Virus record (IMG/VR): IMGVR_UViG_3300010381_000016
Coordinates: 1-24,629 of that record
Strand: one strand, 5' to 3'
Source of the DNA: a virus
Lineage: Duplodnaviria > Caudoviricetes
Length of the DNA: 24,629 nucleotides
Position numbers and translations under genes: made by a program. Under the pieces are notes generated by a model, which worked only from the letters and a program-made list of their open reading frames with translations, had not been told where the DNA came from and did not search any database. This document shows positions 1,352 to 18,490 of this stretch, piece by piece. How positions within the stretch are numbered: the stretch's first letter is position 1; each line of letters opens with the position of its first letter.

Positions 1352-1386
1352 ACTGTATATACAATGGATTTACAGGAGGATAATAT

Positions 1387-1605
1387 ATGGGTGACAATTA
1401 CAGGAGATCAGAGACAACACATACATCGTACCGGCTGCCACCGGCCACAAAATTCAAGCTTGAGCAGCTATCGGATTATTACGGTTCGACTCGTACCGAA
1501 ACGCTGAAACGCTTGATAAATGAGCATTACACGGCAAAGCAAGCCGAAATAAAAGAATTTTGCAATCTGCGGGATAATGAGAAAAAGGCAGATAAACGAA
1601 GCTAA
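1387..1605 (+). CDS. Ribbon-helix-helix (CopG-like) DNA-binding protein
   Basis: THTSYRLPPATKFKLEQLSDYYGSTRTETLKRLI fits strand-helix-Gx[ST]-helix pattern; AGGAGG SD. Confidence 0.7.
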   Translation: MGDNYRRSETTHTSYRLPPATKFKLEQLSDYYGSTRTETLKRLINEHYTAKQAEIKEFCNLRDNEKKADKRS

Positions 1606-1629
1606 CCGAATGATAATTTGAGCTAATCG

Positions 1630-1657
1630 CCGCTAATCGATTTTTAGCGGTTTTTTT
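1630..1657 (+). terminator. Intrinsic terminator
   Basis: CCGCTAA-7 nt loop-TTAGCGG followed by T7. Confidence 0.8.
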
Positions 1658-1662
1658 GCACC

Positions 1663-1691
1663 TTGAAGCGTGTTTCGTTTGGATGTATCAT
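1663..1691 (+). promoter_or_regulatory. Sigma-A-like promoter of the ribozyme-punctuated operon
   Basis: TTGAAG(1663-1668)-17 bp-TATCAT(1686-1691), directly after the terminator and upstream of an SD/ATG. Confidence 0.6.
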
Positions 1692-1734
1692 AAAACTATC
1701 GAAAGCGCAACACACATTGAAGGGAGATACAAAA

Positions 1735-1911
1735 ATGAATAAATCTCAAATGTCCAATCACATCAAGTCGACTTACAACGGTTTAATGCAGAAAATCTTA
1801 TTAGCTCAGCTTGATTACTTAAAAAGTGGCAAATCGTACAAATTTCACTTTGACGGTATAAGCTACAGATTAACGAACAATAAAGGAATATTTGAAATAA
1901 TCGAGGCGTAA
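1735..1911 (+). CDS. Hypothetical protein, 58 aa (cassette ORF1)
   Basis: AGGGAG SD then ATG at 1735; the track's TTG start at 1663 is the -35 box. Confidence 0.75.
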   Translation: MNKSQMSNHIKSTYNGLMQKILLAQLDYLKSGKSYKFHFDGISYRLTNNKGIFEIIEA

Positions 1912-1918
1912 TGCCTCA

Positions 1919-1969
1919 CCGTAATGCGGATATTCCGGTTCCAATCCCGGAGGCAGGCGCAGAGGACGG
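1919..1969 (+). ncRNA. Twister ribozyme, type P1
   Basis: P1 CCG/CGG; U^AA 1922-1924; P2 UGCG/CGCA; P4 UUCCGG/CCGGAG; 8-nt L4 UUCCAAUC; pseudoknots UCC(1940-42)/GGA(1964-66) and GA(1929-30)/UC(1945-46); conserved GA 1962-63. Confidence 0.88.
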
Positions 1970-1982
1970 AGAACCTTGACAA
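1970..1982 (+). promoter_or_regulatory. BoxA-like antitermination motif
   Basis: AGAACCTTGACAA, identical to the 13-mer at 22050-22062 (- strand); no -10 box follows the embedded TTGACA. Confidence 0.5.
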
Positions 1983-1987
1983 CCTAA

Positions 1988-2069
1988 CAGCAATCCCCGA
2001 TGAACCTGCATTGCAGGATATACGGCGAAGCGCATAGCGCAGAATAGCCGGAGCGATAAGGGAAAACTG
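1988..2069 (+). ncRNA. Unassigned multi-stem RNA element
   Basis: Nested pairings CAG/CUG and UCCC/GGGA enclosing CCUGC/GCAGG and CGGC-GCGC/GCGC-GCCG arms; no ORF with SD. Confidence 0.5.
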
Positions 2070-2106
2070 GTCTGCACGTAGCGAAAATATAAAGGAGTGT
2101 TGAACA

Positions 2107-2430
2107 ATGTCAAGACCAACGGAACAGGAATTAAAAGCATATGCTGAAATGAAGGCAGAAACCATAATAATTAGGACATGGGATGGAAAGGAGTACGAGA
2201 GCAACAGCAGTGATGACCGGCGGGACACTACACCGGAAGAAAAGAAAATCATTGAATCTGTTATTTTCGGAGGGCTTCTGGCGATCCGGTCAGGAGCGGA
2301 CAAACAAAGCGTAAAACACGCTTGTGAGTACATCGGAAATATTCTAATGGAGGATATCGTCCGCGAAGGGCGAATGAACGGCTATGACAGCATCTACAAC
2401 CCCATCGGCGATTATCCCGAAATGAAATAA
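2107..2430 (+). CDS. Hypothetical acidic protein, 107 aa (cassette ORF2)
   Basis: AAAGGAG SD, ATG start, no recognisable motif. Confidence 0.85.
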   Translation: MSRPTEQELKAYAEMKAETIIIRTWDGKEYESNSSDDRRDTTPEEKKIIESVIFGGLLAIRSGADKQSVKHACEYIGNILMEDIVREGRMNGYDSIYNPIGDYPEMK

Positions 2431-2506
2431 ACTCCACCGGAGGAGTATAAACCGCTTTAGGTCCGGTGCGGTGCAGGAAAGTAGGAGGGCTTCTCCTGCA
2501 TGTAGC
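2431..2506 (+). ncRNA. Pistol ribozyme
   Basis: P1 ACUCC/GGAGU; loop ACCGGA pairs with UCCGGU(2462-67); AUAAA linker; P2 GCU/AGC; UUAGG; conserved GCG 2468-70; P3 GUGCAGGA/UCCUGCAU; G^U at 2502/2503. Confidence 0.92.
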
Positions 2507-2527
2507 AAATTGAAAGGATGTGGATGT

Positions 2528-2728
2528 ATGTACAAATTTAAGTTCAAAGAAAAAAAGACTGGAATTATTTTAAGTCCAACCGATATTGCAAGACTCAATT
2601 TAGCAATTGACCCTATTACCGGACGGGCGGCGGCTTTTTTCGTAGATGATACTGGAAGTAGCGGTAAAGCTAGTAAGTGTCACGCAAACCGAATTACGAC
2701 CGACGATTACGAAATTATTATTGAATAG
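2528..2728 (+). CDS. Hypothetical protein, 66 aa (cassette ORF3)
   Basis: GAAAGGA SD before ATG 2528; the track's longer start lies inside the pistol. Confidence 0.75.
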   Translation: MYKFKFKEKKTGIILSPTDIARLNLAIDPITGRAAAFFVDDTGSSGKASKCHANRITTDDYEIIIE

Positions 2729-2781
2729 TCGAAACCGCCCACTTGCGGCGGTCTGCGTCAGATAGGCGCGCTGATGAGACT
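2727..2781 (+). ncRNA. Hammerhead ribozyme, type II
   Basis: AGUC-GAAA-CCGCC/GGCGG-UC^(2753)-UGCGUC/GGCGCG-CUGAUGA(2771-77)-GACU; complete catalytic core with open stem II. Confidence 0.95.
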
Positions 2782-2798
2782 TGAAAGGATGTGTATAT

Positions 2799-2951
2799 AT
2801 GGAACTAAGCGAAAAAGCATTAAAAATATGCCGTGAAAACTACAAAGCAAGCTGCCACAACTGCCCGATCAGACCGGAATGCGTAAGTCATATAAACAAG
2901 ATGGATGAATGGACAGACAGCATTAACAAAGCAGCGGAAAGGACGTGTTAA
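2799..2951 (+). CDS. Small Cys-rich hypothetical protein, 50 aa (cassette ORF4, not in ORF track)
   Basis: MELSEKALKICRENYKASCHNCPIRPECVSH...; GAAAGGA SD; C..CxxCPxxxxC possible metal site. Confidence 0.75.
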   Translation: MELSEKALKICRENYKASCHNCPIRPECVSHINKMDEWTDSINKAAERTC

Positions 2952-2957
2952 GAAATA

Positions 2958-3014
2958 GCAGATGGGTCCGGCTCCGGCCGGATTAATGCACAGCCTGAGT
3001 CCAAAGTCTCGGGC
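2958..3014 (+). ncRNA. Twister ribozyme, type P5 (circular permutation)
   Basis: GCA-GA-UGG; P1 GUCCGGC/GCCGGAU; U^AA 2984-86; P2 UGC/GCA (only 3 bp); P4 GCCUGAG/CUCGGGC; L4 UCCAAAGU; pseudoknots CCA/UGG and AC/GU. Confidence 0.78.
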
Positions 3015-3029
3015 AGAAGGGAGAATAAA

Positions 3030-3557
3030 ATGGCAACAGCATTAAAACTCACAAAGAAGCAGGAAGAAATGCTTTATTTACTCAGATTGGACGGTCTAAG
3101 ACGTGAAATTGAATGGCGCGAAGCCGAAGAAGCCTATAAAAAGGCACAGGCGATTGAAAAAGCCGTCAGCCAGTACGTAGTTGACAACAACGTATATTAC
3201 ATCAGCCAACTAGAACATGATATGCCGGAAACGAAGAACGGTGATCGGGTAACAGATGAATTTGATATGTGTCTGGTGGACGAGGAAATTTTCAAGAATG
3301 ATTTTCTGCCGAAAGTCAAAGCTGTATACATGGAGCTTTACGGTATCGACAACCCGCTAAACTTTGTTTACTCGCATCCGATGTTTGAGCGTAAATTGAA
3401 AGCTGAAAAAGCCTATCACATGATAGCAGTTGACTTTCTGAAAATATCCGGCCGGCCGGAAGCTGTACAGCTTGAAAAGGCCGTAAATAGCTACCTAAGT
3501 CCAAAGATTAAAGAACGGTTAGTAGCTATAACAAAAAGCTTTATAGATGGCAAATAG
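3030..3557 (+). CDS. Hypothetical protein, 175 aa (cassette ORF5)
   Basis: AAGGGAG SD, long ORF, no recognised motif. Confidence 0.88.
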   Translation: MATALKLTKKQEEMLYLLRLDGLRREIEWREAEEAYKKAQAIEKAVSQYVVDNNVYYISQLEHDMPETKNGDRVTDEFDMCLVDEEIFKNDFLPKVKAVYMELYGIDNPLNFVYSHPMFERKLKAEKAYHMIAVDFLKISGRPEAVQLEKAVNSYLSPKIKERLVAITKSFIDGK

Positions 3558-3567
3558 AACGTAGCAA

Positions 3568-3592
3568 GCCGAGTCGGGCGGCATATCCCGGC
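3568..3592 (+). ncRNA. Compact H-type pseudoknot upstream of SD
   Basis: GCCG(3568-71)/CGGC(3579-82) crossed by GUCGGG(3573-78)/CCCGGC(3587-92). Confidence 0.65.
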
Positions 3593-3608
3593 AGATTGGA
3601 GGAAAGTT

Positions 3609-3800
3609 ATGGTATACATCACCTATGGTAATTTTAAAAAAATTGACCTAGAAAAGCTAGAAACTGTCTGCGAAAAGTACGGTGCAAGGATTGAACACAA
3701 AACGAAACGGATTTTTTATGAGCCATCTAAGGTAAACGGCAAGGAATTTTACAGAGAGCTTGACGAGTGTGCAAGCGGAGGCGGCTTTTACGGTGATTGA
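3609..3800 (+). CDS. Hypothetical protein, 63 aa (cassette ORF6)
   Basis: GGAGG SD, ATG. Confidence 0.8.
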   Translation: MVYITYGNFKKIDLEKLETVCEKYGARIEHKTKRIFYEPSKVNGKEFYRELDECASGGGFYGD

Positions 3801-3807
3801 TTTATTT

Positions 3808-3835
3808 TACCGCCGCCCGTCCGGTATAGGCGGGC
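3808..3835 (+). ncRNA. Compact H-type pseudoknot upstream of SD
   Basis: ACCG(3809-12)/CGGU(3822-25) crossed by GCCCGUC(3815-21)/GGCGGGC(3829-35). Confidence 0.65.
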
Positions 3836-3850
3836 AGATTGGAGGATAAC

Positions 3851-4027
3851 ATGACCGATAAATTATACAAGTGTTGCAATACTTGCGCGCACAAAGACAA
3901 TAGCTTATATGGATGCAGTAAGGCATCGGAATGCTACAACGGATTTAGCGCATATAGTCCAAACACTGACATACAGGAACAAGAGGAAGCCGCTCTCCAT
4001 ATAGTGAGCAGAAAGGAACGCATATGA
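3851..4027 (+). CDS. Small Cys-rich hypothetical protein, 58 aa (cassette ORF7)
   Basis: GGAGG SD then ATG 3851; CCNTC...C...C. Confidence 0.75.
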   Translation: MTDKLYKCCNTCAHKDNSLYGCSKASECYNGFSAYSPNTDIQEQEEAALHIVSRKERI

Positions 4028-4119
4028 GCAGAAAATATCTTATCCGCCTTATCCGCATGTACTGTAACGCATCCCCTATCGGCAGGAGCAGGAACGCCGA
4101 GCACGTTTCGCCCGGATAA
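4024..4119 (+). CDS. Possible 31 aa peptide (cassette ORF8)
   Basis: GAAAGGA SD, ATGA overlap with ORF7; MSRKYLIRLIRMYCNASPIGRSRNAEHVSPG. Confidence 0.45.
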   Translation: MSRKYLIRLIRMYCNASPIGRSRNAEHVSPG

Positions 4120-4185
4120 TGGCGGCGAATAAAAGTATTATGACAAAATAATCAGGGTGGCGGCCTGCGCCGGAGGGAATGAAAG

Positions 4186-4353
4186 ATGCAAAACAATGTC
4201 ATGCTGTACAAGAAACAGATCATCAGTTTGATCGAACAAATTCAAGATTGCTTGAAATACGAAAAGACAATCCCAATACCTGGGAGTTATGCGGATGAAT
4301 TTTTAAAAGCCGCAAACGAGTACAACAAGGCAATAAGAGAGCAAACTAAATAA
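4186..4353 (+). CDS. Hypothetical helical protein, 55 aa (cassette ORF9, not in ORF track)
   Basis: GGAGGG SD; MQNNVMLYKKQIISLIEQIQDCLKYEK...AIREQTK. Confidence 0.7.
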   Translation: MQNNVMLYKKQIISLIEQIQDCLKYEKTIPIPGSYADEFLKAANEYNKAIREQTK

Positions 4354-4416
4354 GTCCCGAGGTTCTCGCCTGGTAAAATTCCAGGGCGGCAGAAATGCCG
4401 TAACGCTTATAGACTT
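4352..4416 (+). ncRNA. Twister-sister-like ribozyme (variant lacking P3)
   Basis: P1 AAGUC/GACUU; internal loop CCGAG opposite GCUU^AUA; P2 GUU/AAC; P4 CCUGG/CCAGG with 7-nt loop UAAAAUU; P5 GCGGC/GCCGU. Loop 4 deviates from the usual UGCAAGU. Confidence 0.58.
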
Positions 4417-4436
4417 TGGAAAAGGGGATTGATATT

Positions 4437-4706
4437 ATGTCTAAAAGTTATATTGAAAAATATGGAATGGATATGGTTAAAAAGCATTTGCGCAATCGGC
4501 ATAATGGCAGATATTTTAAGGTTCATGGCGATTATTGTAATATCGGAATTGTTATTTTTAATGAAAACCTTTTCAAGTCCGATATTGATTTATTTAACTT
4601 CCCAATCGTTAAAACAAACCAAAACGGCTGGAATTTGTCAAAGGCTCCGACACCAGAAGAGTTTGAGGTAATTTATAATTATTTAAAGCAGGAGGTCACA
4701 AAATGA
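4437..4706 (+). CDS. Hypothetical protein, 89 aa (cassette ORF10)
   Basis: AAGGGG SD before ATG 4437; ATGA overlap with resolvase. Confidence 0.8.
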   Translation: MSKSYIEKYGMDMVKKHLRNRHNGRYFKVHGDYCNIGIVIFNENLFKSDIDLFNFPIVKTNQNGWNLSKAPTPEEFEVIYNYLKQEVTK

Positions 4707-5281
4707 ATTATAGCTATGAACGTGTCTCCACATTGCATCAGGACGAGCGCAGGCAGGAAATCAGCCTGGAACACATCAAAATAGACAGACGGTACATTGA
4801 CAAACGAACCGGCAAAAACGCAGACAGGCCGCAGCTGAAGCAGCTTATTGCGGATGTAAAAGCGGGCGATCATGTGTACTGCGAGAGCATCAGCCGATTA
4901 GGCAGGAACGTCGACGATCTGCGCCGATTGACGGAGCAATTTGTCTCAATGGGTGTCACTGTCCATTTTGTGAAGGAAGGCATCGACACATCCGGCAGCA
5001 CGTACAAATTTCTACTTACCATCCTGGGCGCGGTTGCTGAAATGGAGCGAGAAGTCACTGTTGACCGTGTCAGGGAAGGTGTAGAAAAAGCTATGCGATT
5101 CGGCACAAAGACAGGCAGACCGTTTGGCAGACCTGAACCGGAATTGCCAGATACATTCCCGAAATACTACGCCAAAATGCGGGCTGGAGAGATTACAAAA
5201 GTTGAAATGTCACGCTTGCTCAAAGTCGGGCGCAGTACGGTTTATCGGTGGATAAATCTGCATGAGAAAAGCCGGAGATAA
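4703..5281 (+). CDS. Small serine recombinase (resolvase/invertase family)
   Basis: YERVSTLHQ catalytic motif, RPQL, ISRLGRN, GRP hinge and C-terminal HTH (VGRSTVYRW). Confidence 0.95.
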   Translation: MNYSYERVSTLHQDERRQEISLEHIKIDRRYIDKRTGKNADRPQLKQLIADVKAGDHVYCESISRLGRNVDDLRRLTEQFVSMGVTVHFVKEGIDTSGSTYKFLLTILGAVAEMEREVTVDRVREGVEKAMRFGTKTGRPFGRPEPELPDTFPKYYAKMRAGEITKVEMSRLLKVGRSTVYRWINLHEKSRR

Positions 5282-5297
5282 TCCGGCTTATTTTTTT
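5267..5297 (+). terminator. Intrinsic, probably bidirectional terminator closing the cassette
   Basis: AAGCCGG(5269-75)/CCGGCTT(5283-89) followed by T7, between convergent genes. Confidence 0.8.
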
Positions 5298-6305: not shown

Positions 6306-6818
6306 TCACGCTCCTATCTCTTCCAAAAATTCTTTCACATTATACCGATAATGTACCTTTTTCAGCTCGCCTTTTATCTCAATGCCATTCTCCTGTATAA
6401 ATTTTAGCGGGAAGCTCTTTGACTCGCTGTGATAGAAAAAATAATGAACGTGCCGAATTGGTACAAAATATGTAAACTCCAAATCTCTGAAGTTAAATAT
6501 GTATCCCGTTATGATTCCTGGAAAATGTGATGCTTTTTCAAGATCATTTAATTGCTTCTCTTTGCTCCATGTGTTTTTTTCTTTGTCATACTTCCCCATC
6601 ACCGCCGTATACGGAAAGCTCTTTCCCAAATGGCTTTTTAGCTCAATCAGCCACATTCGCCCATCATGGAGAAGGAAGTCACATATATTCTGAGCTTGAA
6701 AGCGTGTCTGTTCCTGTTCTCCCCATGCTGCCGTACCATCCTTGAAGCGATAATGAAATACTGAGTCTGGAACGGATTTTATAAAGTCCTGCTCAAAGGA
6801 TTTACCAGCGTTAGGCAT
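6306..6818 (-). CDS. recU: RecU-like Holliday junction resolvase
   Basis: GKSFEQDF...ICDFL...LIELKS...QL..L motifs; start at MPNAG with GGAGG SD. Confidence 0.8.
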   Translation of the reverse strand: MPNAGKSFEQDFIKSVPDSVFHYRFKDGTAAWGEQEQTRFQAQNICDFLLHDGRMWLIELKSHLGKSFPYTAVMGKYDKEKNTWSKEKQLNDLEKASHFPGIITGYIFNFRDLEFTYFVPIRHVHYFFYHSESKSFPLKFIQENGIEIKGELKKVHYRYNVKEFLEEIGA

Positions 6819-18407: not shown

Positions 18408-18490
18408 TGGTGGAGAAGGCCGGTATCGAACCGACATTTCATGTTTTACCATGGCAACATGCGTGTTTGCCCTATTGTCACCACTTCCCC
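18408..18490 (-). tRNA. tRNA-like gene with enlarged anticodon loop (isotype undetermined)
   Basis: Acceptor GGGGAAG/CUUCUCC-A-CCA; D arm GUG/CAC; T arm GUCGG-UUCGAUA-CCGGC; anticodon stem CAUGU/ACAUG closes 12 nt instead of 7. Confidence 0.8.

Follow-up and report, generated by a model that had tools for sequence, protein, structure and literature searches.

The operon and its ribozyme-like elements

The window, i.e., the whole 24,629-nt stretch analysed here (IMG/VR record IMGVR_UViG_3300010381_000016, Caudoviricetes), is a provirus record, 53% complete, from a sediment sample. Its small DNA-binding gene (1387-1605) has its closest relative, according to one source, in Clostridiaceae, and the phage genes include RecT and a PDDEXK-like protein. 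A rightward block of small ORFs (approximately 1690-5290), flanked by promoter-like and terminator-like sites, separates the integrase/replication genes from the terminase-side genes. The features considered here are as follows.

1663-1691, plus strand: candidate sigma-70-like promoter (consensus 9/12) of what is inferred to be a ribozyme-punctuated operon
1918-1970, plus strand: twister (type P1)-like element (Rfam RF03160, 29.1 bits, below the gathering score)
1974-1983, plus strand: conserved CCTTGACAAC motif just 5' of X, identified from the alignment and from L042/L043, L077 and L147
1988-2069, plus strand: element X, an 82-nt structured RNA directly 5' of the upstream site (closing helix 1988-1997/2060-2069; hairpin 2005-2017; helix 2023-2026/2047-2050 capped by hairpin 2030-2040)
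2071-2083, plus strand: upstream pistol substrate strand (P3' 2071-2077, P2' 2080-2083; predicted cut G2078/U2079)
2092-2097, plus strand: Shine-Dalgarno-like AAGGAG of ORF2, recognised from the sequence
2107-2430, plus strand: ORF2, 107 aa, with a stop codon that abuts pistol P1
2431-2478, plus strand: pistol enzyme core (Rfam RF02679, 31.7 bits), consisting of P1 (2431-2435/2442-2446), pseudoknot (2436-2441/2462-2467), AUAAAC, P2a (2453-2456), UUAGG (2457-2461), GCG (2468-2470) and P3a (2471-2478)
2481-2487, plus strand: repeat of the P3 enzyme strand, located in the P3 loop and able to pair with 2493-2499
2495-2507, plus strand: local pistol substrate strand (predicted cut G2502/U2503)
2727-2786, plus strand: type II hammerhead-like element (Rfam, 28.5 bits, below gathering)
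2957-3011, plus strand: type P5 twister ribozyme (Rfam, 44.8 bits, above gathering)
4366-4467: weak match to RAGATH-36 (Rfam, below gathering)

Among the Rfam ribozyme and RAGATH matches (P1 twister, pistol, hammerhead, P5 twister and RAGATH-36), the P5 twister alone passes the gathering score. Ribozyme clusters of this kind are already known, according to the available text of two papers (PMC4604425; PMC6765202). The TGTATCATAAA stretch of the promoter candidate also precedes X in relatives, and the predicted cut of the P1 twister, at 1922/1923, would define the 5' end of an X-bearing fragment in the window phage. The CCTTGACAAC motif is presumably comparable to the rrn boxA antitermination signal.

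Several further sequences in the window attract attention. The RAGATH-36-like region (4350-4415) and a region of L202 (approximately 6655-6700) start with the same AATAAGTCCCGAGGTT stretch. Two intergenic elements, 3565-3605 and 3810-3846, share a 25-nt repeat with a GGCAGATTGGAGGA end and represent a candidate further motif with no match in Rfam; the former is found again in L020 and L032. A perfect 17-nt inverted repeat has its two arms, 1176 nt apart, in a coding region (2617-2633) and in a leader (3810-3826). On the minus strand, 18408-18490 resembles a tRNA or the 3' end of a tmRNA (Rfam E-value 4.8e-05, below gathering) and is a possible remnant of an integration site.

ORF2 has 47 homologues, with no match in Pfam or PHROG and none above a TM score of 0.5 in the structure atlas; a profile search of genomes with ORF2 likewise yields no match. 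It is an interchangeable cargo, unrelated to the cargoes found in the equivalent position in L147 and L068.

One pistol core and two substrate strands

The window pistol (2431-2507) reaches 31.7 bits against the Rfam gathering score of 34.5 bits and is one base short between P1 and P2, compared with 59-70 bits for homologous pistols with a full local strand (RF02679). P1 (ACUCC/GGAGU) and the 6-bp pseudoknot (ACCGGA/UCCGGU) are present and co-vary in homologues, and AUAAA, UUAGG (G33) and GCG (G40-C41-G42) are all found in the window core; roles of G33 and G40 in the pistol are given in the available text of PMC10946891.

The original prediction was that a second substrate strand of this core lies upstream of ORF2. 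The sequence 2071-2083 (UCUGCAC-GU-AGCG) does repeat 2495-2507 (CCUGCAU-GU-AGCA), with 10 of 13 positions identical; both sites are present in the span initially proposed, the end of which has to be moved from 2506 to 2507, the last base of the local site. The upstream strand pairs, as claimed, with GUGCAGG (2471-2477) through seven pairs (six Watson-Crick and one G.U) and with CGCU (2453-2456) through four P2 pairs, compared with three at the local site. Thus, the pairing totals in the window are 8+3 for the local and 7+4 for the upstream site, each with a two-base GU junction. The fourth P2 pair with the upstream site is a peculiarity of the window: P2a is GGCU in 11 of the 11 other distinct site-bearing loci tabulated, and three P2 pairs form with the upstream site in all 10 other loci with a parsed P3. 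A site of the 7+GU+4 type occurs only at 2071-2083 on both strands of the window; in a post hoc test, such a site appears in 0 of 500 dinucleotide shuffles of the operon (1370-5281) and 0 of 2000 shuffles of 1370-2430, and a 7+GU+3 site, in an equally post hoc comparison, is present in 2.6% of 500 operon shuffles.

The predicted cuts are 424 nt apart and the upstream one would leave a 28-nt leader on ORF2, exactly as first calculated. The statement that this leader resembles those of the other modules holds for the local pistol alone (25 nt); the leaders left by the hammerhead, P5 twister and P1 twister are 45, 45 and 184 nt long, respectively. Near-copies of CCUGCAU occur three times, at 2005-2011, 2071-2077 and 2495-2501, the 5' arm of the first X hairpin being identical to the local P3' strand. 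The two-site repeat was recognised at the outset, with no mention of X or of the repeated enzyme strand within the P3 loop.

This loop copy (2481-2487) forms with 2493-2499 a hairpin of -10.7 kcal/mol, and 4 of 1000 loop shuffles are equally stable. Re-pairing of at least four bases of the local strand with a loop copy is seen in 9 of 11 X-type pistols vs 5 of 60 other pistols; the copy is missing in L013 and weak in L057/L068. This pairing could free P3a, in which case the copy would act as an aid to strand exchange.

Other peculiarities of the P3 region can be noted. The P3 loop of the window contains a Shine-Dalgarno-like AGGAGG (in the 2484-2505 region), and in the window and L068 (approximately 1944-1960) the local cleavage site falls within a start-stop AUG-UAG, the ORF2 group having ACG at this position. 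The pistols of L093 and L113 carry long inserts in the P3 loop, with the substrate strand 95 and 112 nt from P3a, respectively, and pistols of this type get poor scores from Rfam-type models. The pistol cores of L103, L162 and L180 show an apparent 3-bp P3 and a CU junction.

Element X and the recurrence of the upstream strand

Considered by itself, element X is a new structured RNA. Its AUGA, AUAC, UAG and GGAGCG segments are invariant, and 15 of its 19 base pairs change on both sides among ten sequences. In the alignment, 85.7% of the cells are paired, compared with 65.2% in shuffles (0 of 500 as high) and 31-42% when the structure is slid, the structure having been drawn from the same ten sequences, five of which represent one lineage. 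For the window X, the MFE fold coincides with the comparative fold. A comparison of X with 4227 Rfam families gives no match at E-values up to 1-5; an earlier description outside Rfam is possible. Identification of X as a hammerhead, HDV-like, hairpin, hatchet or degenerate pistol ribozyme was rejected: the required cores are absent by eye and no Rfam match points to them. The GAUGA and GGAG strands of X might be read as k-turn-like.

A relaxed X pattern yields 40 viral matches, 35 of which were judged to be chance matches (the stricter first pattern yields 0), and 8 of 8 matches in GTDB genomes were judged likewise; the candidates L055 and L198 were dropped for the same reason. A BLAST search with X against plasmids gives no match, and model R1, the sole positive control of which is a training sequence, finds no new X in 99 further loci or 50 virus records. 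X is often the first element of the operon, closely preceded by the promoter and the CCTTGACAAC motif, and there are also cases of X without a pistol. Twelve of the 14 distinct X sequences have the site and a downstream pistol, and two (L042/L043 and L077, in records that are 74%, 24% and 25% complete) have neither, so that X without the site is found solely in records where no pistol was found.

The constant position of the site, always a few nucleotides 3' of the X closing helix, raises the question of whether it belongs to X itself, i.e., whether X is a ribozyme or switch, the 3' tail of which pairs with the arm of the first hairpin, the likeness to the pistol being historical. The CUGC of the site is indeed identical to the 5' arm of the X hairpin in the window, the ORF2 loci and L147, and L042/L043 retain a CCUGCA tail without a pistol. 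However, X is found without the site (L042/L043, L077), the site of L057/L068 matches the X arm (GCCAA) at only four of five positions and fits the pistol P3a better, and X contains no conserved partner for the P2 strand AGY, so that this explanation is highly improbable.

The distribution of the site among relatives of ORF2 follows that of the pistol. The 36 loci of such relatives that were fetched include 14 with a pistol after the ORF. The conservation that the original prediction implied for homologous loci is borne out: the upstream site is kept in 11 of 11 pistol-bearing ORF2 loci that hold the upstream region, and is present in 0 of 22 ORF2 loci without a pistol (2 of which hold at most 30 nt upstream). 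In the seven ORF2 loci compared base by base, the site is identical to that of the window at 11 of 11 bases in every case, with the ORF DNA 64-68% identical and the 15 nt that precede the site matching the window at 1-7 of 15 positions (ungapped). Ten ORF2 loci compared share 90-100% identity among themselves and 68-70% with the window, and are therefore counted as one lineage. An exact 17-mer scan of viral contigs gives five matches, all unrelated, and a BLAST search with the module against phages gives none.

Altogether, the upstream site recurs in four lineages with three unrelated cargoes, and the two-base junction, GU or AU, and the P2 strand are kept in all four; the case for co-variation rests on these four lineages. 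L057/L068, found by the X pattern alone, contain X, a site UUUGCAC-AU-AGUA, two ORFs unrelated to ORF2 and then a pistol (59 bits) with P3a GUGCAAG, the site and P3a forming six Watson-Crick pairs and two G.U pairs. Between upstream site and core, across 704 nt, a G-C pair of the window is replaced by A-U; the local copy has the same change, so that copying between the repeats could mimic this co-variation. AU junctions also occur at natural local sites (L105, L163 and L185).

L147, detected by the pistol-core pattern alone, shares the upstream gene and the promoter with the window. X and the site are followed by an unrelated ORF of 145 aa and then by an intact core, the P3a of which forms seven Watson-Crick pairs with the site, the G.U of the window P3 being replaced by A-U. 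No local substrate strand was found in L147 in the 454 nt up to the contig end, the best candidate there having 5+1 pairs. When ten pistol loci for which no local strand was parsed at first were re-examined, L147 was the sole one with a 7+3 GU site upstream but no such site close by; in six of the others, the local P3 stem is long or very short, and three give no clear parse. L147 is a single contig and could reflect a recent deletion that left a relic core behind. A P5 twister lies directly 3' of its pistol core; on the minus strand at approximately 2040-2085, between the orphan core and the twister, there is an 11-nt repeat of the twister cleavage-site strand, possibly a mark of rearrangement or a second twister substrate.

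As a control, an upstream GU/AU site was found in 2 of 73 other pistols (59 of which hold at least 400 nt upstream), namely L099, where it belongs to a tandem duplicate with its own core, and L163, where it lies 1367 nt away. The upstream site is present in 9 of 11 X-type pistols, and the remaining two hold only 312 and 79 nt of upstream sequence.

The tandem pistols of L099, with near-identical substrate strands, illustrate how such a repeat might arise neutrally, as a scar of a tandem pistol duplication in which the upstream core was lost or, as originally proposed, of a circular cassette that integrated at the cleavage site, with recombination keeping the copies alike. The phage-encoded RecT and PDDEXK-like protein are compatible with such a history, as is L019, where the leader after the local pistol site (733-780) is the same as the ORF2 leader of L011-L013 at 45 of approximately 46 nt. 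This leader is what the predicted circle junction would look like at the DNA level and is explicable by crossing-over at the repeat or by misassembly. However, the site is invariant, in contrast to the flanks and the ORF, where drift amounts to a third. In the window and in L057/L068, 3 of 13 positions distinguish the two copies in each case, and all these differences keep or improve upstream pairing or fall in the junction. The empty allele expected under this explanation (X and the site without a pistol) is absent among the 14 distinct X sequences, and L147 has retained the upstream copy and lost the local one. No related phage that lacks exactly this module was found; L202 lacks both X and the pistol. 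Given the recurrence in four lineages, the co-change with the core, L147, the invariance of the site and its absence where there is no pistol, a neutral scar is unlikely, and a history of duplication or integration is rated as improbable; integration in particular is an unlikely sole explanation, even if the repeat does seem to be a recombination point, as in L019. Judged by this comparative sequence evidence, 2071-2083 is a real, selected feature.

Proposed mechanism and comparison with known systems

Because 2071-2083 is conserved and co-varies with the downstream core, the core likely folds back across ORF2, and cleavage of the upstream site by this core is, on the same evidence, a probable outcome. 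The reading that best accommodates these observations is a natural circularly permuted pistol in which the gene occupies the P2-P1 linker and the local cut is followed by the upstream cut. This mechanism is considered reasonably likely, given that an engineered permuted pistol and two-piece pistols both cleave. The assembly of a permuted pistol across the ORF, as initially suggested, thus gains support from conservation, co-variation, swapped cargoes and L147, with the upstream cut itself a prediction.

Under the proposed mechanism, the local P3 hairpin would form during transcription and the local site would be cut at G2502/U2503, after which the downstream product, held by three pairs, would depart. 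The upstream strand would then dock in P2 and exchange into P3, and the displaced local strand would pair with the loop copy. The cut at G2078/U2079 would free X with a 9-nt tail and leave a 424-nt RNA with the Shine-Dalgarno sequence, the ORF and the core. Once local P3 had re-formed, the 5'-OH and the 2',3'-cyclic phosphate, the ends that Mg2+-dependent pistol self-cleavage produces, would lie side by side in the active site, so that the product would be a loop closed by pairing and perhaps ligated in part. The outcome common to the lineages would be a delayed cut, with X parted from the message only once the cargo is transcribed and the 5' end of the message held in P2 beside its own 3' end.

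The folding models bear on the order of these events. In uncut RNA, the local P3 hairpin wins in all five loci (P 0.83-0.99), so that the upstream cut should come second, and in nascent L147 the upstream pairing has P 0.005. Each of three features makes upstream docking cheaper in a nested folding model, namely the local cut, a folded X and the loop copy; barring the loop after the local cut adds 2.5-5.7 kcal/mol. After the local cut, docking costs 0.1-0.3 kcal/mol with a 5' end at 1986, 0.7-2.3 at 1960 and 6.3-7.9 at 1923, the cost (0.1-7.9 kcal/mol overall) varying with the 5' boundary and being worst at 1923, the realistic end after the twister cut. In other loci, the cost is 0.6-7.3 kcal/mol (1.6 in L147), and all absolute values are unreliable. 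The model ignores ribosomes and tertiary contacts.

The same models lend some weight to another explanation, namely that in dual-site loci the upstream strand pairs but is rarely cut, serving either to tune local cleavage, as a decoy, or to close the message non-covalently, as a clasp. Local P3 is dominant in uncut RNA, docking may cost 6-8 kcal/mol, and co-variation demonstrates pairing rather than chemistry. However, the length of the junction, its GU/AU identity and the P2 strand are kept in all four lineages, beyond the needs of a decoy, and L147 has no local cut to tune. Pairing without frequent cleavage is accordingly considered a minor possibility, and the permuted, cleaving pistol is the preferred reading.

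Whether the 424-nt RNA becomes a circle is a separate question. The proposal that its ends are juxtaposed for ligation has plausible geometry: for an RNA cut at both sites, the modelled cost of keeping its ends in the active site is 0.1-1.8 kcal/mol, a result obtained for 9 of 9 dual-site loci. Circularisation cannot be the common function, though, because L147 is without the local site that a covalent circle needs. Accumulation of a covalent 424-nt circle is therefore doubtful, and so is the fuller proposition that an mRNA cassette excises and seals itself, with one core cutting at both flanks to give a translatable, exonuclease-proof circle of Shine-Dalgarno sequence and ORF and to free X. 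No circular joints were found in two contig sets of one sample, possibly the one from which this DNA comes, a search that covered assembled contigs only; the RNA-labelled run holds the phage as a single 40.7-kb contig and so reads as DNA. An endless reading frame on the 424-nt circle was considered and rejected, since all frames stop. A 2021 paper by Lihanova and Weinberg, to go by its title, reportedly concerns pistol ligation. Most small ribozymes favour cleavage over ligation, as stated in the available text of PMC10761166.

The locus can be compared with known systems, as far as these are described in the available text of the papers cited. X resembles the RAGATH and orphan RNAs found near ribozyme clusters (PMC6765202) in that its structure is conserved and its phage operon is rich in ribozymes; in contrast to the RAGATH families, X matches no Rfam family. 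The VS and hairpin satellite ribozymes (PMC6765202) likewise have repeated cut sites that delimit a unit, and the same ribozyme can ligate the circle; there, the units are replicon monomers within a multimer, each with its own core, whereas here one core and two sites surround an interchangeable phage gene, and neither a rolling-circle template nor a reverse transcriptase was seen. Natural circular permutation is known for the hammerhead (types I-III) and twister (P1, P3 and P5) ribozymes (PMC6765202), which are compact and enclose no gene; no permuted pistol is listed alongside them in that text. With the pistol of RF02679 (PMC4604425), the window element shares P1, the pseudoknot, P2, P3, AUAAA, UUAGG, GCG and the two-base GU junction, as well as the phage/Firmicutes-type context among other ribozymes. 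It differs in having a further substrate strand at a distance, 5' of the core, a duplicated enzyme strand in the P3 loop and, in the window, one base fewer between P1 and P2, and L147 lacks the local strand. Two-piece pistols cleave, at an estimated rate of at least 10 per minute, and the identity of the junction varies somewhat (PMC4604425).

The roles of bacterial and phage self-cleaving ribozymes are, in the available text of PMC6765202, largely open, with processing of polycistronic messages suggested and unproven. If upstream cleavage takes place, the active site assembles across a translated gene, so that the cut would be delayed until the gene is transcribed, and a single core processes two sites. 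Covariance searches miss such permuted forms, and the class may therefore be undercounted; no natural permuted or two-site pistol was found in the available text of the literature searched. If ligation follows, circular mRNA would arise in bacteria without the help of proteins, and the locus would offer a design from nature for circularising RNA.

The closest parallel is the engineered circularly permuted pistol, the original paper on which reportedly appeared in ACS Synth Biol in 2021. According to the available text of PMC10103173, this molecule, with its 5' and 3' ends linked and L3 opened, cleaves and accepts inserts in the P2-P1 linker. Its strand order, P3'-GU-P2', linker, P1, core and P3, is the same as here, and this topology, with the substrate strand 5' of P1 and an open P3, is present in the window and is the sole arrangement in L147. 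The engineered pistol is synthetic and compact, whereas the element described here is natural, with a linker made up of Shine-Dalgarno and coding sequence (350-640 nt), and the native local strand is retained as well in most copies. Thus, if upstream cleavage is real, this phage operon contains a natural permuted pistol, a form that was found in print only as an engineered scaffold.
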